Source: Octopus vulgaris
Taxonomy: Eukaryota
NCBI GenBank assembly: GCA_951406725.2
Contig: OX597835.1
Location: 7,378,001-7,442,000, forward strand
Reading direction: 5' to 3'
DNA length: 64,000 nucleotides
Below the pieces are notes generated by a model. The model saw only the letters and a list, made by a program, of their open reading frames with translations. It was not told the DNA's origin and ran no database searches. The position numbers and the translations under genes were made by a program. Below, piece after piece: positions 3,116 through 58,053 of the stretch (its first letter is position 1; the number at the start of each line of letters is the position of its first letter).

Positions 3116-3720
3116 GTATTTCGTTTGCCATTACGTTCCGAGTTCAAATTCCGCCGAGGTCGACTTTGCCTTTCATCCTTTTGGCGTCGATTAAATAAGT
3201 ACCAGTTACGCACTGGGGTCGATATAATCGACTTAATCCGTTTGTCTGTCCTTGTTTGTCCCCTCTATGTTTAGCCCGTTGTAGGCAATAAAGAAATAAG
3301 AAACGTTAGCACGCCGGGCGAAATGCTTTGCAGTATTTCGTCTGTCTTTACGTTCTGAGTTCAAATTCCGCCGAGGTCGACTTTGCCTTTCATCCTTTCG
3401 GCGTCGATTAAATAAGTACCAGTTACGCCCTGGGGTCGATATAATCGACTTAATCCGTTTTTTCTGTCCTTGTTTGTCCCCTCTATATTTAGCCCGTTGT
3501 AGGCAATAAAGAAATAAGAAACGTTAGCACGCCGGGCGAAATGTTTTGCAATATTTCGTCTGTCTTTACGTTCTGAGTTCAAATTCCCCCGAGGTCAACT
3601 TTGCCTTTCATCCTTTAGGCATCGATAAATTAAGTACCAGTTGCGGACTGGAGTCGATCTAATCGACTGCCCCCCTCCCCCCAGAATTTTCCGATCTTGT
3701 GCCTAGAGTAGAAAAGAATA
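3116..3720 (+). mobile_element. SINE family B, tandem array of about three partial units
   Basis: Repeated gagttcaaattccgccgaggtcgactttgcctttcatcc...aagtaccagtt with ~220-bp period. Confidence 0.85.
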
Positions 3721-5522: not shown

Positions 5523-8500
5523 TAGTGTTAAGACTCTTTTAGTTTTGGGGAAGTGAACGATTTCCTGTATCAAAATTCGATGAACAATTACATATAAGTA
5601 AGGAAAATAAATCGTATTTTCAAGTTTTTAAAAGAACACCACCCCCAACTGAAGAAAACATGCAAAATTCTAGGAGGGACGTTCATAAAGCGTACACAAA
5701 CTAAACTTGGTTTAGTGACTTAAGGCAATGCAGAAGACTTATATCACAAATTTCAGCTTTCAAGTTTAGGTGTTATAGAGTTTTTAATTTGTTACTACTT
5801 AGGCCCTACTTTAGGAAATATCCTATTCCATTCCTTTTTATTTCTGTGACTCTAACTATATTGACTGTTTTTCAGAATAGTAAGCTTATTTAAAATAATG
5901 TCTCAAAAGAGAAGTGCTTGTGCCACTCAAGGAAACAGAATAATGTGGACGAAGAATCTCAAGACTGACATAGGAAAAGAAGACAGGTTCCTCTAGAAGA
6001 GCATCCGTTGGAAAACAACTGCAGGATACCAATGAAACTTCAAATTGTCGGTTGCTATCTGTTCCTTGGAGGTACCGTCAAATGAAGGAAAGGAAATTTC
6101 GGAAGGAGTAACATTTTTATGGCAAAAGAAATTAAATTTCCCATATTTATCAATTCAAAATGTACAGAAAAAATTAGAAAAAGTAATGAATATCTACGAT
6201 TATTTTGTGTAAAACGGGGAAAATACGATTCATTGAAATTAATCTTTGACATTACAAAGGAAAACAGCGAATGCCTGTGCAATGAGGATAGAAGGTTATA
6301 TTACCTTCAGATTGAAAGCATGGGACGGGTTGGGTATGCAACTGGAAAGACAAAACTATTCACCCAAAAAACAAAAAAGTGTCCTTAATGCCAACTTCAA
6401 CCAAAGCAACTCCAGTGTTATCGTCCACGTCTGGAGCAGAGACTGAAAGTGAATATCAAGAGTCCGAAAAATCAGATAAAGACTCCACACAAACAAGGAG
6501 GAAGTAGAGCAAAACTGGAACTGCAATCAAGTTAGTAATATCTTCCAAGCTATCAACCCAAAAAGCAGCAAAAGTTTGTTGACGAATATCTCAAGATGGA
6601 ATCTATGTCGAGGGTCCTTCGAAATCTGGTATTTACAGATCAACTATCAAAGAAGCTATTAAACTAAAAAAAAGAAATGAAAAAAAAAACTATATTTAGA
6701 AAACTGGTCATTGCATTTTGATGGTAAACGTATTGATGACCAAGAATACCAAGTGTTAGTTTTCAAGAATGAACAGGGCGATTCCTGAAGTTAAGTTACA
6801 AGCACTCCAATTACCAAAGGGAAAAGCCAATACTGAAAGGAATTACGGCTGTTTTAGATGAATACAATTTATGGAACTGTGCAAAGATGACTGTCGCTGA
6901 TACAACGAGTGTGATCACTGGGAAAAGAAATATCACTGTTATCCAGTTGCAAAGACTATTTGCTCAAAAGGGCTTGAAAGAACCGCAATTTATGGGTTGT
7001 CAGCATCATATCCCAGAGCTTCAAAGTAATTACGAGAAACTCCAGGCTAATTTCAACAATGGTGAAGAAAAAATTACTGAATCAGTAGGATGGCGACATG
7101 ACAGGAAATTCTTATTTCATTTGACCAGAGATTTTCGTTTCTTTGAAGAAACCGGAAAATTTCCTACTGTAAAGTTTCAAAAAAAATACACAACTTAAGT
7201 AATGCAAGATGGAAATCTGTTGCAATACTGGCTCTTTTGGCATTTATTCTTCTACCAGAGAAAAGAGTTTTGCTTCTCAATATTTCTCGATTCATCTCTT
7301 ATAGCTGGACAGATTTTTGGTTTACTGATTAAATGTTAAATGCACATGATTATCAGGAGTTATGTGTTAGTCAGCAAGTTCATAAAAACGCATTGAACTC
7401 AGTAAAAAACTTTTGGAGACGAGCACCTCCCAGAACAAATCAGAGTGCAGAAAGGGCAATCAAGTGCCTTCAAGACCTTTATGATGTTTGTAAAAAGAAG
7501 AAATTTCAGCTCCGATTTATTTTATCTAACAAAACATATTTATTCTATTTATGTTCAAAATTTTGCTAACATTCAGCGCCCTTTTTCTTATAGTTATTCA
7601 AAATTGGAATTATACCTATAAAGTTTAAAATATATATTCTCTTTTACTCTTTTACTTGTTTCAGTCATTTGACTGCGGCCATGCTGGAGCACCGCCTTTA
7701 ATCGAGCAACTTGACCCCGGGTCTTATTCTTTTGTAAGCCCAGTACTTATTCTATCGGTCTCTTTTGCCGAACCGCTAAGTAACGGGGATATAAACACAC
7801 CAGCATCGGTTGTCAAGCAATGCTAGGGGGACAAACACAGACACACAAACACACACACACGCATATATATATATATATATATATACAAATATACGACAGG
7901 CTTCTTTCAGTTTCCGTCTACCAAATAAACTCACAAGGCTTTGGTCGGCCCGAGGCTATAGTAGAAGACACTTGCCCACGGTGCCACGCAGTGGGACTGA
8001 ACCCGGAACCATGTGGTTGGTAAACAAGCTAATTACCACACAGCCACTCCTGCGCCTATTGTTTTTAATTTTGTATATTATAGAATGCTTTTAGTGACCT
8101 CTGTCATAGATTAGCCTAGTTTTTAACCTTTGCATAGAACAATTTCAATTCAGTAATCTTAAAAATGTATGATTACACTTTTATTCTACATCTCTCTTGC
8201 GTTTACAAGGATTTAGGCCTCGGAAATACTGAAGTGTGAATCTCGTGCTACCTAGTAATTATAATTTAAGAAGCCCATAACTCTACTTCAACTAGAAAAC
8301 TGACATTTCAGAGATACTATTTCTGTATTGCATTGCGTCAGCACACCAAGTTTGGTAAAACCTCGAGCAGGGGTTATGAACCCCACTAGAATTTTGCATG
8401 GTTTGGGTCAAAAGTGGTGATTGATGTCTTAAGCTGGGAGAGACGTTTCGTTTTTGCAAATAAAACAAAGTAAAAGTAAATATTAGTTTCCTGACTTATA

Positions 8501-8560
8501 TGAACTTATTCTGCTAATTACAGAAAAGGGTTATTAGGTTGTGCAAAGGTCATAACCTTA
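5523..8560 (+). mobile_element. Degenerate hAT-like (hATm-type) DNA transposon with long imperfect terminal inverted repeats
   Basis: Broken transposase motifs HFDGK, DTTSVITG, GCQHHI, ARW and NQSAERAIK at ~6700-7550; 5580-5765 is an imperfect reverse complement of ~8290-8510 (catgcaaaattctag, aaacttggt, catataagt.aggaaa). Confidence 0.7.
7638..8057 (-). mobile_element. SINE family A inserted in the DNA transposon
   Basis: Full family A copy. Confidence 0.85.
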
Positions 8561-8693
8561 GTATGTATGTATGTATGTATGTATGTATGTATGTATGTAT
8601 GTATGTATGTATTTATATATATACATGTACGTATATATATACATGTATGTATATATACATGTATGTATATATATATATGTATATGTATATATG

Positions 8694-8788
<95 letters not shown>

Positions 8789-9599
8789 AGACCACCATCG
8801 GTCATGAATGCCCGTGGGATTGCACCTAGAATGTTACCCTCCCGTGGCAAAAGGAAAGAAGAAGAAAAACGGGGCATTGCCGGCGATTTGTAACACAGTG
8901 CCGGCAAGTCCCGAAGCCCCGCCGATGGGAATTATGCCACCAACGGAAGAAGCTGTAACCCCTTCATATGTGATAGGCGAGGAATTTGTAATCCTCTTTC
9001 ACAAGGGAGGGGTTTTAGAAAACGCTGTAAAGAAGGTGAAAAAAAAAAAAGGCCTGAGGGAAGGAGTTCTGTCCTGCACAGAAGAACCTGATTGGCCCCC
9101 GCAGGTGGCTGCCGATGTCTTAGGGGAAACCGACTTGTGCAGAATAATTAACTCCTTCCCCGAAAAAATATTGAAATTCATACTAAAGTGTCTCGAGATG
9201 TAAAAAAGGTTAGAGGCTTAGTGCTTCATTTTGTAAGGACGAGGGAGTCCATTTTTGAAAAATGTAAGAGGCTTCTTTTCATTATATGTTTTTGATAAAT
9301 TTTGTTGGGAAGGCTTTGGTCTTGTGCTAAAATTAAAAATCCATCAATCTCTGCTTTGAGTCCTGAGCTTCTTAGCCATTGTTGAGAATTTGCTTTGTTT
9401 ATTTCTTTTGCGTTTAGCTAAACCCAGTATTTGCCATGATTGGGCTTTTCTTGTCATCGCTTCATCATAATCCGTTGCTGTTCCAGTTTTAGTTTGGATT
9501 TCAGTTGTTTTACAGCTTTTGTTGTTTCTTTTTTTTTTCTTCATAGTTGTTAGGTAGTATGACATCTGTTTTTGTATTTGTCATCTTCCTTAAAGACTG

Positions 9600-10265
9600 A
9601 AAATAGTTTTGTTTTGTTTTGTTTGTGTTTTGTGGCTATTTGTATTAGTTTACCTGCTTCTGAATTAGGTATTTTTGCAGTCCTATAGTGGTTATTTTGT
9701 AATAGTTTTCTAGCTGTATAAGGCCTCTACCACCTTCTATACGTTGTATATATATATAACATTTTTATGTCACATTTTGGGTGGTGCATCTTAAATCCTG
9801 TCATTATTTTTCTTGTTTTACTGTCTATTTTGATTTGTTCATTTAGAGTCCTGTTAAGAATACTGTCAATGTAACTTATAACTGGGACAACTAGAGTGTG
9901 GATACCTATTATCTTGTTTTTCGCATTGAGCTCTGTTTTCAGTATTAATCTAAATCGTCTATTGTATTCTTTTCTTATTCTCTCTTTCATTTGTGTATGT
10001 TGTATAGTATCTATTCAATTGATTTCTAAGTATGTGTATGTCTGGCTTTGTTCTAGTTGTCTTACTTCATTTGCTTTATCTTGTGTGATGTTGCTACTCT
10101 TAACAAAAGTTTCCTCTTTTCAAGGTAACTTTGGCACATTTTTCTAAGCCAAATTTCATATTTATTTCTTTGGTAAATCCATGTACTCTTTGTAGTAATG
10201 TGTCCAGCTGTTTATCATTTGTAGTGTACAGTTTTAGGTCTTACATATATAAGAGGTGGCTGAGA
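9600..10265 (-). mobile_element. R4/Dong-like reverse transcriptase fragment
   Basis: HLLYM*DLKLY..., INMKFGLEKCAK, YLEI, KERIRKEYNRRFRLILKTELNAKNKIIGI...HHPKCDI...GGRGL; starts right after a (TAA)n tract. Confidence 0.8.
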
Positions 10266-10269
10266 ACTA

Positions 10270-10361
<92 letters not shown>

Positions 10362-10362
10362 T

Positions 10363-10703
10363 ATAGCCTTTGCACAGCTTCTAATGCTGGAGGTGTACTA
10401 CAGTGTCAACTGTCCACTACCAGTGAACTAAGGTAACACCTCTTATTTTTCGAGCACCTTCCATAGTATTCGAGCGGTTCCAAGCAGTGCTGCTTTCTGC
10501 AAGTGCCCCACCCTTATTGCAGCCCCTATTTGTTCCATGTACTTCTCGAGATTTTTGCTCACTGTTCCCAGGGCTCCGACAATTATTAGTACTACTGCTA
10601 CCTTTTTCATCGACCACAAATGCTTAATTTCCCAAGCTAACCAGTCATATCTGTCGACTTTTCTTTCTTCCTTTACGCATACCTTGTTGTCAGCTGGATA
10701 TGC
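10363..10703 (-). mobile_element. R4/Dong-like 3' end (RLE C-terminus + 3' UTR) between TAA tracts
   Basis: KEERKVDRYDWLAWEIKHLWSMKKVAVVLIIVGALGTV...LQKAALLGTARILWKVLEK*. Confidence 0.8.
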
Positions 10704-10726
10704 TTATTATTATCATCATCATCATC

Positions 10727-10788
<62 letters not shown>

Positions 10789-10797
10789 CATTATTAT

Positions 10798-10832
<35 letters not shown>

Positions 10833-10879
10833 TTTTATTATTATTATTATCATTATTATAATCATTATTATTATTATCA

Positions 10880-10937
<58 letters not shown>

Positions 10938-10957
10938 CATTATTATTATTATTATTG

Positions 10958-11329
10958 ATTCCAAGTGTCACCCAGAGGCTTCAAGTGATATTCATGTCAG
11001 TATTATGACTAGGGTAGCACATTTTTGGTTTTGCACGGAGTATTGTTCAAGAGTGTGTCTGTCAAAACAAAAGAAAATTAAAAGTTTGTTTTCAAAGTAA
11101 CTTGATAAGATGATAGTGTGATCTTAAGCAAATGTTTGCTATTCTGTACCGTTTAAAGTAGTTTTAATAATAATGTTCACAGATTAAAATGTTTGGGTGA
11201 TTACATAGACAGTATTTTTCTTAGAGTATGAACAGTTCCCATGAGCACTAATTTTTTTGTTGGATTTCCTGATATCTAAGATAGGGAACAATCAGCCCCT
11301 TTTGCTATCATTACCAAGACGCCTCCACA
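10958..11329 (-). mobile_element. R4/Dong-like extreme 3' end + 3' UTR between TAA/TGA tracts
   Basis: ...KKLVLMGTVHTLRKILSM* resembles the conserved RLE C-terminal helix; flanked by TAA repeats. Confidence 0.55.
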
Positions 11330-11353
11330 TTATTATTATTATTATTATTATTA

Positions 11354-11414
<61 letters not shown>

Positions 11415-11510
11415 CATCAACATCATCATTATCACCATCATCATCATTACCATCATCGTCATCATCGTCATCATCGTCACCATCATCATCATCATCGTCA
11501 TCATCGTCAC

Positions 11511-11555
<45 letters not shown>

Positions 11556-11616
11556 TATCATTATTATGATTATTATCATCATCAACATCATCATCATCAT
11601 CATCAGCAGCAGCAAG

Positions 11617-11682
<66 letters not shown>

Positions 11683-11698
11683 CATTATTATTATTATT
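11330..11698. repeat. (TAT)/(CAT)n compound microsatellite
   Basis: Trinucleotide repeats. Confidence 0.95.
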
Positions 11699-12514
11699 TG
11701 GCTTAACTAATTTCTGCAAAAGCCTGTTGATTTTCTATGTGTCTAAATAGACAGATGTTTGCGTGTTATTGCCTTTCTTCTCGCCTGCAATAATTAAGAC
11801 GCTCGTTGTTCTTGTCCATATTGTTGCTGTTACCGCTGTTCGAAAGCAATTAGGATAAGTGTATTTACAATTCGGTCTAAACACAATAAATAAATAAATA
11901 AAAGCATCAAAAGAATACGAAAATAAAAATAATGGCGCAAAATTCGTCCATAAAAGACACGAAACGAAATCTAAAAACATAAATAAGACCAAAAAAAAAA
12001 TTCTAATTCATCGAAAAATAATTAACGTGGGAACAATTAAAGATATGACACTTAGAAATAATTCATAGCAGTGTTATTTTTCTTCAAAATGGCGGCTCGT
12101 AAAAGTGAAGTAGTGTCGGGATGTGAAGGCAAACGGAATTTTTCGGTAGCGAGAGAACCTTCAAGAGAGGGAATTTACAGCGGTTTTAGAGAGATTAGAT
12201 GTTAGAGATTGAGATGATGATGAAACTGGTGTTCTGATACACGCGGATCGTGTCAAATCATATATGTATAACGCGTGTTTATGTGTGCGTGGTAGTGTTT
12301 GAATTTGTGTATATATGTATAAGTATGTATACGCGTAAGTATGTATAAGCTAGTATATGTGTGTGTATGTGTGTGTGAGAGAGAGAGAGAGTGAGATGGA
12401 GAGAGTGTGTGTGTGCGTGCATGCGCGTGTGCCTGTGTTACCTATATAGAAGATATATAAACAGGGCTAAATTAGAGCTATCACACCGTAGATGAAAAAT
12501 ATGATGAACATCCT

Positions 12515-12565
<51 letters not shown>

Positions 12566-12982
12566 TGTGTGTGTGTAATTATTGAGAGAGATGGGTAATA
12601 GAAGATACGAGAATCTTTATTAATCACTACAATCGTTTCGACCTACCTAGTATTGATCCATCGCGAGTGGGATATTGTACAACAGGTTTAGGTGTATTCG
12701 TCGGTGTAGATTTGTCTTCTCGGGTGATTTCAAGACGTAATGTTATTATCTGTCCGAATATGCTTGAAGCACGTTCGAACTAGGGAACACGCTACTCACT
12801 GCGTTTTGTCACGGAAAATATATCCCGTTTGTTGACAACGCCACCTAACCAGACTGTGAGATGCTAGCATTTCGGAGTAATTATGTCCTCTTCGATCGCA
12901 GACACTTGGCAAGCGGCGCTACGAGCTGATTGAAGACATTGATTCTGTTATATGCTTTTCCAGTCACCATATGGTGACTGGT

Positions 12983-13375
12983 GGAGGCGCAATGGCCCAG
13001 TGGTTAGGGCAGCGGACTCGCGGTCATAGGATCGCGGTTTCGATTCCCAGACCGGGCGTTGTGAGTGTTTATTGAGCGAAAACACCTAAAACCTCCACGA
13101 GGCTCCGGCAGGGGATGGTGGCGATCCCTGCTGTACTCTTTCACCACAACTTTCTCCCACTCTTACTTCCTGTTTATGTTGTACCTGTATTTCAAAGGGC
13201 CGGCCTTGTCACTCTCTGTGTCACGCTGAATCTCCCCGAGAACTACGTTAAGGGTACACGTGTCTGTGGAGTGCTCAGCCACTTACACGTTAATTTCACG
13301 AGCAGGCTGTTCCGTTGATTCGGATCAACCGCAACCCTCATCGTCGTAACCGACGGAGTGCTTAAGAAGAAGAAG
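12983..13375 (+). mobile_element. tRNA-derived SINE family C, long tail (OR1-like), 14-bp TSD
   Basis: Head ggaggcgcaatggcccagtggttagg...ggtttcgattccc; (aag)n tail; TSD atatggtgactggt at 12969-12982 and 13376-13389. Confidence 0.9.
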
Positions 13376-13744
13376 ATATGGTGACTGGTAGCACTATGCG
13401 GCGGCTTATCGTAAGTGAATTACAGAGGAGGAGCACTTGAGGCACGTTCGAACAGGGGAAGAAGTTATTCACTGCGTTAGGTATATACACACCATTTGTC
13501 AAAAAGCAGCATATATTTTCCTTAACAAAACGTAACGAGTAGCTTGTTACCTAGTTCGAACGTGCGTCAAGTACATTCCAACTAATGATAACATTACAAT
13601 TTTACTCATCACTGCTTAGTGCTCCGCCCGCCGCCTCTGTAATTTACTTACGGTGAGCCGCCGAAAAGCATACGAGAGTCAGTCTCTTCTATCAGCGCCT
13701 CCAGCCTGGTGTCTGTGACCCAAGAGATAACTATTCCGAAATGC

Positions 13745-14275
<531 letters not shown>

Positions 14276-14730
14276 TTGTAATTCCATAGTGAATATGGAA
14301 TTTACACCGTACATAAAACGTTTTAGTCAGTTAAAAACACACCAAAACTGTTATAGGCGCCATATTTATTTCTTTGGGTGTCGAAATTATCGTTGCAATC
14401 TCAACAAATATACTTTTAACACGTCAAGAAATAAGCGAAAAGTGAACATAACAGGTACTTCGCGTTCCGAATGATTATTCTTCGACATAACTGATTCAGT
14501 TTTAGACTGTTATTTGCAACTAAAAGTATTGGCAGAAATATCCGAAATGAGTGGCATCTTGTCCAGTGAAGAGGGAATGACAGGGAATTTCAGAATGAAT
14601 AATCTAGAAATTAGAGTGTAAGAAGCTATGGCCAGAAACACTTGCATACGATTGGGAGATCCTTCTCTGAAGATCTTTTACAGTTCAGAGGTTCTTGCTA
14701 GTGCCGCATAATCAAACACACATACACGCG

Positions 14731-14885
14731 TGTGTTAAGAAGCTTGCTTCCCAACCACATGGTTTCAGGTTCAGTCCCACTGCTGCGTAGCATCTTTGGC
14801 AACTATCTTATCTTCTACTATAGCCTCGGGTCGACCAAAGCCTTGTGATTGGATTCGGAAGACGGAAACTGTAAGAAGCCGGTCA
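14731..14885 (+). mobile_element. SINE family A 5' part, diverged
   Basis: Similarity to the family A head. Confidence 0.7.
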
Positions 14886-14900
14886 TATATAGGTGCGCGC

Positions 14901-14932
<32 letters not shown>

Positions 14933-14950
14933 ATGTATGCATGTATGTAC

Positions 14951-15006
<56 letters not shown>

Positions 15007-15155
15007 CCCAAAATAAGCAACAAGAATGGATCCGGTTACTTGTTGCTTATTTTTGGTTATAATCATCCCGCATAATTTTATGGGTAATACCATAAAAATT
15101 CTAGTGCATCTAAATTAAGTACCATATTCATTTGAATCTAAATTGTTTTGCTGAA

Positions 15156-15217
<62 letters not shown>

Positions 15218-15219
<2 letters not shown>

Positions 15220-15790
15220 AGTAGTTGAATGAATTATCTTATTAAGGATAATTCGAAAGATAACCGATACCTGGGTAGCAAATTCACATCAGAAAGAACA
15301 CGGTTGAAGCTACGTCCCTAGGGCATAGACTACATGTCTTCGTGCGGAAATTTGTATGTTTATTTTAAAATTATAAGTATATGAAAGAATGGAGTTGAAC
15401 GACTAGCTAACAAATATCCTTTATTCTCGACATATGTTTCGAAGGCTGCATATTCCTAATTCCGAAGGAATAAGGAGTACACTTTTTATATGATGAGAAA
15501 ATAGAGAGTTAATTAATAAATTATTATTTATCAACTAAAAAATTGGCAAACATGCCTTACAGCTGTTTCAATTCCAGACCTTCAGAAAATTAATTAATTA
15601 AATAAAAAATTATTTGAAAGCCAATCTCTTCAGAGATAGTTAAAAAAATTCGAAATAGGTGTTCAATTTCTATGTGTTGAGTAAACAGCGGTTAAAAACA
15701 AACGAATGTAAGTTGTACTCAATAGATTTTAATAGGAGTTAAAAGTTCTTATTAATAAATTTACCCAGAACTTTTGATAGGGACAGTAAA
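15218..15790 (-). mobile_element. Penelope-like pLTR remnant in (TA)n
   Basis: Contains an HHR-like motif; first ~110 bp recur at 34676-34825; flanked on both sides by (TA)n. Confidence 0.55.
15554..15637 (-). ncRNA. Type I hammerhead ribozyme-like motif with long AU-rich stem II
   Basis: atct-CTGAAGA-[gattggctttca...tgaaggtctggaatt]-GAAA-c agct g-TA-aggc; palindromic stem III. Confidence 0.5.
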
Positions 15791-15841
<51 letters not shown>

Positions 15842-15843
<2 letters not shown>

Positions 15844-16950
15844 TGGTGTGCAGTCGGGGCATGCAGGCTCATGCACTGCATGCCCGTTTATTTTATATGT
15901 AACTCAAAAGTTAAGTTAAGAAAGTAGTGTATTTATAACCACATTGAAAAGTTGTCCAAATTATTGGAAACTGAGTTAGAAAAGTTACTTTATTTCAAAG
16001 GTAACCCGTCCAGATTCTATACTTTGCTCTATTCCCATTCTGCTTCCTCGAGGCATGCTTAAAGAAAAACGCATATGAAATCTTTTGTTCTCCCCTTCCT
16101 ATCTTTCAGTAACCATAATTTCTCTCCTGTCTATCTGTAAAGTCAATATCTTTATCGACTTTACAGATAGGCAAGAGGGAAATGATGGTTATCTGTAAAG
16201 ACAATGCCTGTAAGGTTCTTTATGTCAATAAAATAAAAACTGAAGTTATGTTTTGAGAAAATCGAATGTTACAGCTTTGGTTCTCCCCCTCCCTTTCTAT
16301 CAGTTTTCCTTTGTCAACAATTCTTTGTAATTGACAGGCGACAGGCTAAATAGTTGAATGTGTTTGACATTTTGACCCGTAAAAATTCTCATAATTCTCA
16401 ATTAGTCAGCTCAAATTTTAGCGTGACCTTGGAATATCTATTTCGTGCTGACATATGTTTTGAAATTATTATCATTGACCATCCTCTGTATTGAACAAAT
16501 TTTCAAAAATTCTGAAATCAGGAATATAATATAGTTAATTAATCTTTTGTTGGTTTGGAAAATTATCTTTCCGATTTGTTGAAACCGATTTAAAATTCAC
16601 GCACACACCCACACACAGTGTATTGCTTTCTTGAGATTTCTTTAGGATTTTCGAAATATTTGTCCAAATAATTGAAATGTGTGTTACAGAAGAAATTTTG
16701 AAAAATAGTTTTTCAAAAAAAGATTTTGAAATGAAACAATTAATTATAAATGGTGGTCGACCAACACCGAAATTACCTGATTTGCGAAGCTACAACAAGA
16801 AATTCACGAGACAATTTCAGGTTAGTTTGCATGAAAAGAAAAAATGGTTAACAGGTAGTGCTACGCTTAATAAGTTATTCTGCTGGCCATGTGTGTTCTT
16901 TTGTTTAGAAAAATCTATTTGGAATGATAAAGGTTATGATGATGTAAATA

Positions 16951-24002: not shown

Positions 24003-25692
<1,690 letters not shown>

Positions 25693-54518: not shown

Positions 54519-55314
54519 AAACCTTATTGTTTCCAGAATATTTCAAATTGTAAACGTAATTTACGAACACCTTGTATTCTAAGAGCTTACACGACCAACA
54601 AATTTAGACACACTCTAGCATCGGCTGAATAGCGACGAATACACTGAACCGATAAACTAGAGAATCTCTTTTTGCTTCGTGTTTCGTATTCTGTAAAAAC
54701 ACATTTCTTATTTCAGGTGAAAAATTTTGTTTCTGGCTAATTTTTGTAATATAAATTATAATGTAGTTACAAAGTCTAAATACTGCAGCTGCATCGAATG
54801 TTAGGAAAAGCTACAACTTTTATCTTAACGAATTAACAAGTTTTACATGAATCATTTGTAGTTAGCTGAGAAGAAATAGGTGTTATATCTATGTTTTTCA
54901 CAGACGAAAGTGTGTTTTGGTTTGTGTTTTAAGGTGGGGAAATGTTTATCTAATTCTTTATTGAAATATATAAAATACAAACATTTGTTTATGGATAAGG
55001 TCACGGTGTTATTGTGTTGTTTTATTTTATTTGTTCACTTAAGTAATTCGTTTATTCTTTCGAAGCATCTTGAAAATAATCCGATGTTCTGAGATTTTGA
55101 AATCAGGCTTTGCTACATTAAACTTTGAGTATCAGTTACCCACCACCTCTAAATATAAACTAGAGGTAAAAAAAAAACCTAGGTAAATTTTACATGTTTG
55201 TTTCTTTTTTATTTCATTGATCTGTCAAAGGCGAAGTAGAGGTGCATGGCCTAATGGTGATGATGTTGCACTTACAATCATGAGATCGTGTGTTCGATTC
55301 CAGGAGAGAGCGGA

Positions 55315-55848
55315 GCGTTTATTTGAGCATGACGAAGTGAAGGCGCATGACTGTATTTAGGCTGTTGAGTTCGCGATTGTAAGCTCGTGATTTCGATTCC
55401 TGGACTGAGCGGTGCACTGTTTTCTTAAGCAAAGCCCTCCGCTTCCCTTTGCCCGGTCCACTCAGAGGTAAATGGGTTCCAGTGATAGACAGGAAGTTAA
55501 TCCTGCATCGAAGAAGCATCCCGCGCAGTGGGGTTTGTGTTGTAACCTGAGTCACTTATAGGCCGTGGAGACAGGGTAAAGCGTTTATTTGAGCATGACG
55601 AAGTGAAGGCGCATGACTGTATTTAGGCTGTTGAGTTCGCGATTGTAAGCTCGTGATTTCGATTCCTGGACTGAGCGGTGCACTGTTTTCTTAAGCAAAG
55701 CCCTCCGCTTCCCTTTGCCCGGTCCACTCAGAGGTAAATGGGTTCCAGTGATAGACAGGAAGTTAACCCTGCATCGAAGAAGCATCCCGCGCAGTGGGGT
55801 TTGTGTTGTAACCTGAGTCACTTATAGGCCGTGGAGACAGGGTAAAGC
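55315..55848 (+). repeat. Near-perfect 266-bp tandem duplication (old tRNA-like SINE content)
   Basis: gcgtttatttgagcatgacg at 55315 and 55581; nearly identical translated ORFs. Confidence 0.95.
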
Positions 55849-55924: not shown

Positions 55925-56390
55925 GAGTCATGGCAAACCCAAGTCCAAGTAACATGGAAAAAGAGTTAAGCTCCGGTTTTATGATTCCTGGGAGTGATGA
56001 CAAACCTAAGTCTAAGTAATGTGGAAAAGGCGTTAAGCACTGGCCTTATGAGTTTGAGGAGTCAGGACAAACTCATTTCTAAGTAACATGGATACAGGGT
56101 TAAGCTCCGATTTTATGATTCCTGGGGATCATGACAAAACTAAGTCTACGTAATGTGGAAAAGGCGTTAAGCACCGGCCCTATGAGTTTGAGGAGTCATG
56201 ACAAACTCATTTCTAAGTAACATAGAAACAGGTTAAGCTCCGATTTTATGATTCCTGGGGATCATGACAAAACTAAGTCTAAGTAATGTGGAAAAGGCGT
56301 TAAGCACCGGCCTTATGAGTTTGAGGAGTCAGGACAAACTCATTTCTAAGTAACATGGATGCAGGGTTAAGCTCTCGCCGTATGAGTCAT
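55925..56390 (+). repeat. Tandem repeat: ~67-bp subunits organised as ~134-bp dimers
   Basis: atgattcctggg at 55981, 56115 and 56248, alternating with atgagtttgagg. Confidence 0.85.
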
Positions 56391-56967: not shown

Positions 56968-57383
56968 AGTCGCAGGAGTGGCTGTGTGGTAAGTAGCTTG
57001 TTAACCAACTACATGGTTCCGGGTTCAGTCCCACTGCGTGGCATCTTGGGCAAGTGTCTTCTGCTATAGCCCCGGGCCGACCAATGCCTTGTGAGTGGAT
57101 TTGGTAGACGGAAACTGAAAGAAGCCTGTCGTATATATGTATATATATATATATATATGTGTATGTGTGTGTTTGTGTGTCTGTGTTTGTCCCCCTAGCA
57201 TTGCTTGACAACCGATGTTGGTGTGTTTACGTCCCCGTCACTTAGCGGTTCGGCAAAAGAGACCGATAGAATAAGTGCTGGGCTTACAAAGAATAAGTCC
57301 CGGGGTCGATTTGTTCGACTAAAGGCGGTGCTTCAGCATGGCCGCAGTCAAAATGACTGAAACAAGTAAAAGAGTAAAAGAGT
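56968..57383 (+). mobile_element. SINE family A, full length
   Basis: Family A. Confidence 0.9.
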
Positions 57384-57720
57384 CTGGGAAGGGTGGGATT
57401 AATGTAAAGAGCTTAACTTAATTCCACAATTCGTAACAGATCTACAAATATTCATAGCTTCTCGGCGGCGCCAGAATATGATACCAGATTGATGTATCTA
57501 AAATATGATTAATGAAGAACTAATGGCCGTTCGTGAATCGTTTATGTAACTGCGACGATTTCTGGTGCTGTAACGCCTTGACCTATTGCGTGCAACAAAT
57601 GGAGCCCAGGCGGAGGTGTTGCGATGTCTCTAATAAAACTTTTGCTTGTTTGCTTGCCTTTTATTTTTGTGCTTCCCCTTGTTTCAGTCATTAAATTTTA
57701 CTGAAAATATATATATATAT

Positions 57721-57973
57721 AAGTTTACGAAGTCTAGACAAATATCTTCAGCTAGCAGGCCTTGCTACTCTAGACTGATGATGGGCAAAACCCTGAAACA
57801 TGCATGTATCTAGATGCAGGCCTAGCTGTTGGGGGTGTTTGTCTCCCCTTCGTAAATATATAAGGACACAGGAAATGTGTCAAGGCCTACAGGAAGCGTC
57901 GATGCTTCCTAGGGCTAAATGGCGGTGATGTAATTCCCTTACGGGACTGTCACGTTAAGTTGACAGTATACAA

Positions 57974-57976
<3 letters not shown>
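57721..57976 (+). mobile_element. Highly structured hammerhead-containing element (retrozyme/pLTR-like)
   Basis: Long hairpin 57724-57856 enclosing an HHR, followed by several hairpins; flanked by (TA)n and (CT)n(TA)n. Confidence 0.75.
57769..57814 (+). ncRNA. Canonical type I hammerhead ribozyme
   Basis: tctaga-CTGATGA-tggg caaaa ccct-GAAA-c atgcat g-TA-tctaga; palindromic stem III acatgcatgt; predicted GUA cleavage after 57808. Confidence 0.85.

Positions 57977-58053
<77 letters not shown>

Follow-up and report, generated by a model that had tools for sequence, protein, structure and literature searches.

Metazoan non-LTR retrozymes, as described in the available portions of two reports (PMC7229834; bioRxiv 10.64898/2026.07.22.740005), are non-coding units of 150 to 450 nt carrying one type I hammerhead; they occur in thousands of copies, range from monomers to multimers and reside in genomes that also hold Penelope-like elements (PLEs). 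Mobilization of animal retrozymes by PLEs has hitherto been proposed from this co-occurrence and from homology to the PLE terminal repeat (pLTR). In the parts of the Xenopus study that were available, retrozymes gave 21 PLE matches, and one of nine predicted retrozyme dimers cleaved (bioRxiv 10.64898/2026.07.22.740005). Mapping of insertion ends for metazoan retrozymes was not found in the available portions of either report. For endonuclease-bearing PLEs, the accessible text describes partial tandems, an inverted 5′-truncated arm, a tail of 30 to 40 nt at one end, two internal 3′ ends in an AC-rich context and a U3-A8 hammerhead variant of minimal form (PMC8557442; PMC11167929; PMC4209133). 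PLE insertions show a 5′-truncated arm in inverted orientation and carry the tail on a single side (PMC8557442, in part). In vitro, a PLE protein cuts and extends both strands, and its two internal starting points delimit the tail (PMC11167929, in part).

The element studied here lies in a 64,000-nt stretch of the Octopus vulgaris genome (the window; assembly GCA_951406725.2, contig OX597835.1, positions 7,378,001 to 7,442,000, forward strand) and belongs to a repeat family named F1. We interpret the window copy as a 5′-truncated, non-coding hammerhead repeat of the non-LTR retrozyme kind, likely inserted in trans by a PLE reverse transcriptase-endonuclease; we put the probability of this reading at about 0.8. 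F1 shares with the described retrozymes each of the general properties listed above, and its unit of ∼360 nt compares with 350 to 390 bp in mussels, as far as the available text gives these. It departs from them in consisting mostly of dispersed, truncated copies with few long arrays, and in that no sequence link to a pLTR was found, unlike the Xenopus retrozymes. The partial tandems, inverted arm, one-end tail, two internal 3′ ends and AC-rich context are shared with endonuclease-bearing PLEs, and the U3-A8 hammerhead variant of the latter recurs in a sister family, F2. However, F1 has no reading frame, its tail measures 58 nt, and its hammerhead is canonical, with a 6-bp helix I and an internal loop, whereas the PLE form described in the accessible text is minimal. 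F1 would appear, from its sequence features, to work like a PLE-dependent non-autonomous element while having the family-level sequence properties of the non-LTR retrozymes in the portions of the reports available (PMC7229834; bioRxiv 10.64898/2026.07.22.740005). It adds a family to a known kind of element, the retrozyme, and the RNA itself is not of a new kind. A search of the open literature turned up no description of a retrozyme from octopus, and the main text of an O. vulgaris repeat annotation makes no mention of a ribozyme, hammerhead or retrozyme. Repeat collections such as Repbase and Dfam may already list F1, under the label of a SINE, a Penelope element or an unknown repeat.

Features of the window copy and its 3′ junction (positions are those of the window)
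Feature	Position	Strand	Basis or remark
Whole insertion, 5′-truncated copy of family F1, ∼0.8 unit	57700-57979	+	95% identity to reference unit
Irregular 133-nt hairpin (extended helix I) presenting the hammerhead	57724-57856	+	Folding; covariation
Type I hammerhead	57769-57814	+	Sequence, folding; predicted cut after 57808 (GUA)
Hairpin 1 of 3′ cassette	57865-57881	+	Folding; no two-sided change counted, misaligned between families in alignment A2
Hairpin 2, outer 4-bp and inner 7-bp stem (57891-57910)	57884-57916	+	Two-sided changes in 1/4 and 2/7 pairs
Long-range helix, 5′ strand	57922-57930	+	Circular fold; two-sided changes in 4/8 pairs
Hairpins 3 (57935-57946) and 4 (57947-57966)	57935-57966	+	Two-sided changes in 2/4 and 1/6 pairs
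AC-rich single strand ending at E1	57967-57979	+	E1 is the inferred reverse-transcription start
(TC)14 and (TA)22 microsatellites, 3′ junction	57977-58050	none	

The reference unit used for comparison was built from copies other than the window copy, which differs by 3.5% from the majority sequence of its 29 closest relatives (median, 3.1%). The 3′ edge of the insertion is a fixed end shared by many copies, E1, and the 5′ edge is uncertain between 57684 and 57700; no target-site duplication was evident by eye. Covering ∼280 to 295 of ∼360 nt, the copy carries one hammerhead and lacks the inverted arm, the 58-nt tail and part of the linker. With a single cut site and an incomplete unit, it could not alone release a unit-length RNA or a circle. 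The original prediction of a self-cleaving mobile RNA monomer is thus borne out as to a mobile element, for which a family was found, but not as to a whole monomer. The window copy is ordinary repeat debris, a single arm begun at E1 and most likely an inert passenger.

Folding of positions 57721 to 57976 against shuffled sequences gave −102.4 kcal/mol for the plus strand (z = −6.9; 0/200 shuffles) and −85.1 kcal/mol for the minus strand (z = −5.05), weaker than the plus strand and still strong. The ∼130-nt hairpin described earlier around the hammerhead is real, although calling it G-U-rich overstated its composition, as 5 of its 48 pairs are G-U. The downstream hairpins were likewise recovered, except that aggaagcgtc/gatgcttcct cannot form 10 bp with no room left for a loop; the actual stem of hairpin 2 is ∼7 bp and sits inside an outer GGCC/GGCU stem. 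In the full unit, hairpins 3 and 4 are enclosed by the long-range helix, whose partner strand lies in the 58-nt tail. As the window copy is without that strand, the helix had been missed.

In the window hammerhead, three helices follow the type I order around a conserved core. Sequence and folding confirmed the complete CUGAUGA (57775 to 57781), GAAA (57795 to 57798) and GUA core and the palindromic helix III (57798 to 57807) of the original prediction. Helix I pairs 57769 to 57774 with 57809 to 57814, its internal loop comprises 57766 to 57768 and U57815, and loop 2 spans 57786 to 57790. Helix II is GGG/CCC, closed at 10.1/11.1 by a U.U mismatch in place of an R10.1-Y11.1 pair; among the 74 hammerheads of the window's subfamily, this position is U-A in 39, U.U in 33 and C.A in 2. 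The cleavage triplet is GUA in the window copy versus GUC in 64 of the 74 subfamily motifs, and across the 126 motifs of the family helix I forms five or six of its six pairs in 110. A loose core pattern matched the window eight times against a shuffle mean of 4.2, and 15 of 100 shuffles reached eight; since this alone is not beyond chance, the reality of the hammerhead rests on its helices and its family. The Rfam hammerhead models did not match the element at the gathering score or at an E value of ≤10, and the only Rfam output was microsatellite noise.

Like the full-length Schistosoma mansoni hammerhead in the available part of PMC2632901, the F1 hammerhead has an internal loop 1 that ends in UAC with a U opposite and a loop 2 that begins with C and ends with A; the window hammerhead differs from it in the 3-bp helix II, the non-standard closing pair, the palindromic helix III and the lack of an Rfam match. 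The sequence CAAAUA was seen in 5 of the 126 hammerheads of the family. Most residues forming the contact between loops 1 and 2 of the Schistosoma ribozyme are retained across the family, and by analogy a tertiary contact of this type is inferred for the family hammerheads. In the window copy, helix III had a pairing probability of 0.01 in the monomer, and the hammerhead-competent fold lay 2.6 kcal/mol above the minimum. The helix III palindrome was predicted to form a duplex of −13.3 kcal/mol with a second copy. Because helix III barely forms in the monomer and a U.U closes helix II, cleavage of the window copy, its core being intact, is predicted by these folds to be likely weak or dependent on a second copy.

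F1 is dispersed in its own 2.8-Gb genome, with 3,080 first-look candidates, 40 of which were scored and had identities of 91 to 97%. Exact patterns gave 69 matches (32-nt core), 781 (looser core) and 691 (31-mer in the 3′ part), and reversed-pattern controls gave 0 for each of the three. What lies just beyond the 3′ end of some copies reappears ahead of the 5′ start of others, so that the unit is circularly permuted and measures 353 to 365 nt. A short unit, non-coding and bearing a single type I hammerhead, is repeated in the genome. Multimers arranged head to tail, each unit with its own hammerhead, were found at the level of the family only, as a trimer (L041), a dimer (L191) and an F2-type array (L230), the window copy itself being sub-unit. 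Unlike the arrays that define retrozymes, most F1 loci are sub-unit or 1 to 1.5 units long. Contigs from runs presumed to be RNA sequencing span the unit; their depth profile tracks two larger runs of unrecorded type, and the contigs give no starts, ends or circle junctions.

The sister family F2 has a 360-nt unit and 3,034 candidates (example loci, L100:5939-6298 [G000:C13], L120 to L139 and L195 to L197). It matches F1 along the whole unit at ∼60% by BLAST, or 70% of aligned columns with gaps, and combines a U3-A8 core and a 4-nt helix III palindrome with the same two 3′ ends as F1. Several intermediate subfamilies connect the two. Two F1-type copies (L189 and L190) carry the 4-nt helix III of F2, which suggests that the palindrome grows or shrinks through a 4-nt duplication. 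At L230 (G000:C1:8133000-8136500), five complete F2-type units and one partial unit are 99 to 100% identical to each other and 83% identical to the F2 reference, suggesting a young subfamily. This array ends at the second fixed 3′ end, E2, and starts mid-unit, an arrangement that fits copying of a circle or a homogeneous multimer; it would serve well for assaying cleavage.

Comparison of the aligned sequences suggests that the subfamilies and F2 keep most helices through compensatory changes, including C3-G8 to U3-A8 and the long-range helix. At position 3/8, the 126 hammerheads have C-G in 106 and U-A in 17. For 22 hammerhead regions chosen by hand and aligned, two-sided changes affect 20 of 47 pairs (helix I, 5/6), and 84.7% of cells are paired compared with 77.5% in shuffles and 33 to 44% when the structure is slid. 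In a second alignment (A2), of 13 manually chosen 3′ regions, such changes affect 11 of 49 pairs, most of them at the single F1/F2 split. The fraction of cells paired exceeded all 500 shuffles in both alignments; the controls on pair counts separated less cleanly (8 and 17 of the 500), and further pair types showed no excess (482 and 500 of 500). The structures assessed were derived from folds of family members, and as the rows are related, the changes represent few independent events. RNAalifold on a plain MAFFT alignment found just 20 pairs, 11 of them with two-sided change, in helices I and II and the middle stem, a limit that arises because F2 falls out of register in the outer stems. The earlier claim of selection on the plus-strand RNA structure is supported by this covariation.

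Insertion ends were mapped at 70 loci drawn in genome order from the first 100 matches of the internal 31-mer; second matches of pairs and most previously sampled loci were skipped, and one duplicate was dropped. Among the 75 arms that hold the pattern, 3′ ends fell at E1 in 40, at E2 in 32 and elsewhere in 3, with E2 lying 58 nt beyond E1, whereas 5′ ends were scattered. The 37 head-to-head pairs comprised 29 with one E1 and one E2, 8 with one unclear end and none in which both arms stop at the same end. A previous sample of 96 loci, partly end-biased by its queries and with four duplicates dropped, gave 26, 11 and 0, respectively. F2 insertion ends behave like those of F1. Two fixed 3′ ends, ragged 5′ ends, an inverted 5′ arm and a one-sided tail, the pattern of a PLE insertion, were thus all found, and because the alternate-end pairs match both the inverted arm with its one-sided tail and the two internal starts of PLEs, mobilization by a PLE is favored. 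Many F1 junctions run into TA or TC repeats, although by AT content targeting appears weak (0.66 after E1 versus a background of 0.63; TA run in 7/27).

These ends bear directly on whether F1 is a satellite or a DNA-level repeat of the MITE or rolling-circle type with incidental hairpins. Both strands outfold their shuffles, and tandem arrays and inverted arrangements occur, as such a repeat would allow. However, fixed 3′ ends combined with ragged 5′ ends and the alternate-end rule point to an RNA intermediate, as do the circular fold of the unit, which is stronger on the plus strand (z = −7.9) than on the minus strand (z = −4.5), and covariation specific to the hammerhead. A DNA-level origin is largely refuted by the end mapping, and we consider it highly improbable.

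The position of arms relative to the cut site is informative about the template. Thirty of the 75 arms cross it, and among the remaining 45 a single one begins within 5 nt. Given this run-through and the lack of a pile-up of starts, the usual template is likely an uncut multimer or a circle rather than a cut linear unit. The same figures could indicate that the hammerhead is a fossil and that the family spreads by PLE enzymes, with cleavage and circles playing no part, as could the instability of helix III, the frequency of the U.U mismatch in the window's subfamily and the finding, in the available part of PMC11167929, that a PLE assayed in vitro can dispense with its hammerhead and inserts RNA that is uncut. 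A circular template, however, would also explain cut-site crossing. The core is kept across families that are 30 to 40% apart, with a compensatory change at 3/8 and conserved loop-contact residues, and the axolotl retrozyme hammerhead HHR_Amex2, in which the base of helix II likewise carries the U.U of the window copy, cleaves, and does so better as a dimer (PMC7229834, in part). We regard a fossil hammerhead as unlikely.

Intact 781-amino-acid RT-plus-GIY-YIG frames are numerous in the genome, which also holds at least six additional PLE families; some of these have hammerhead variants of their own. The intact frames were seen in a young family (L091 to L096). Upstream of them, this family has a distinct frame, up to 479 amino acids long and without a Pfam match, and its terminal repeat bears a hammerhead of the U3-A8 variant. 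Loci of other PLE families were noted at L097, L101, L105, L106, L109, L111, L114 and L115, at L200 to L229 and at L241 to L259. Families B and F have two 3′ ends and AC-rich tails of ∼32 and ∼45 nt, family F carries a motif resembling a hammerhead whose 5′ core is unusual, and family G has a long CA/TG-rich 3′ region.

A coding partner was sought with a GIY-YIG family search and two endonuclease-fragment searches of the genome, with 150 of 6,136 to 16,452 candidates scored in each protein search. Within the window, open reading frames and tblastn with two PLE proteins gave no PLE coding partner. F1 and F2 had no match in the flanks of the approximately seven sampled PLE families except for separate F1/F2 insertions and short matches that are probably due to chance (best, 21/23 nt; E value, 3e−4). 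PLE fragments upstream of F1 at L009, L174 and L191 were rejected as partners, as they belong to three different broken families. The shared tail pattern has 2,165 exact matches; the 100 listed, all F2-type in appearance, revealed no partner.

It is unlikely, somewhat more so than a fossil hammerhead, that F1 copies are stumps of the pLTR of an unsampled autonomous PLE. PLEs themselves feature inverted arms, two 3′ ends and hammerheads in their pLTRs, sampled coding families also carry hammerhead variants (A and B) or two 3′ ends (B and F), and the scored candidates are a small part of those found. However, no RT-plus-GIY-YIG frame, the mark of an autonomous PLE, was found joined to F1 at the sampled loci: units adjoin units, and copies that extend beyond one unit continue into another unit and not into a reading frame. 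PLE protein fragments in the vicinity of the ∼140 loci searched amounted to four unrelated, broken pieces. On the preferred reading, insertion in trans, recognition by the partner may proceed via RNA structure.

Under trans-mobilization, the tandem source loci observed in the genome would be transcribed into multimers, and the RNA would fold into the conserved multi-hairpin structure predicted by folding and covariation. By analogy with homologous systems, the hammerhead would cut, probably best as a dimer, and the units may be ligated to circles. A PLE protein, the presumed enzyme, would then bind the structured 3′ region and nick both target strands. Reverse transcription would begin at two internal sites 58 nt apart, corresponding to the observed ends E1 and E2, and copying would run a variable distance, often past the cut site, on what the end mapping suggests is a multimer or circle. 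A more specific version, which we offer tentatively and at somewhat less than even odds, is that F1 represents a minimal Penelope substrate. Here, a conserved three-hairpin domain closed by the long-range helix would set both starts, E1 at the AC-rich strand before the 3′ strand of the helix and E2 just past the last tail hairpin, and a PLE protein dimer copying circular RNA would use exactly one of each per two-armed insertion. If true, it would provide direct genomic evidence for the movement of animal retrozymes, with recognition by structure and not by pLTR homology. To the existing arguments for PLE mobilization, F1 adds a genomic signature, 29 alternate-end pairs against 0 same-end pairs, and a covariation-backed structure around the start sites. 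As both occur in a genome with intact PLE frames, a trans-mobilization assay could be easily designed.

Other repeats were noted in the window and genome. Unrelated type I hammerheads with a helix I of 6 to 10 bp were identified at L109 (near 248, plus strand), L065 (near 189, plus strand) and L174 (near 1320), and probably represent further hammerhead-bearing repeat families. In the window, a 266-bp repeat is present in two copies of 99% identity at 55314 to 55848 and adjoins a 67/134-bp tandem array at 55925 to 56388. SINE-like repeats, some in tandem, lie at 57200 to 57390, 3117 to 3668 and 24990 to 25403, and are presumably octopus tRNA-derived SINEs.
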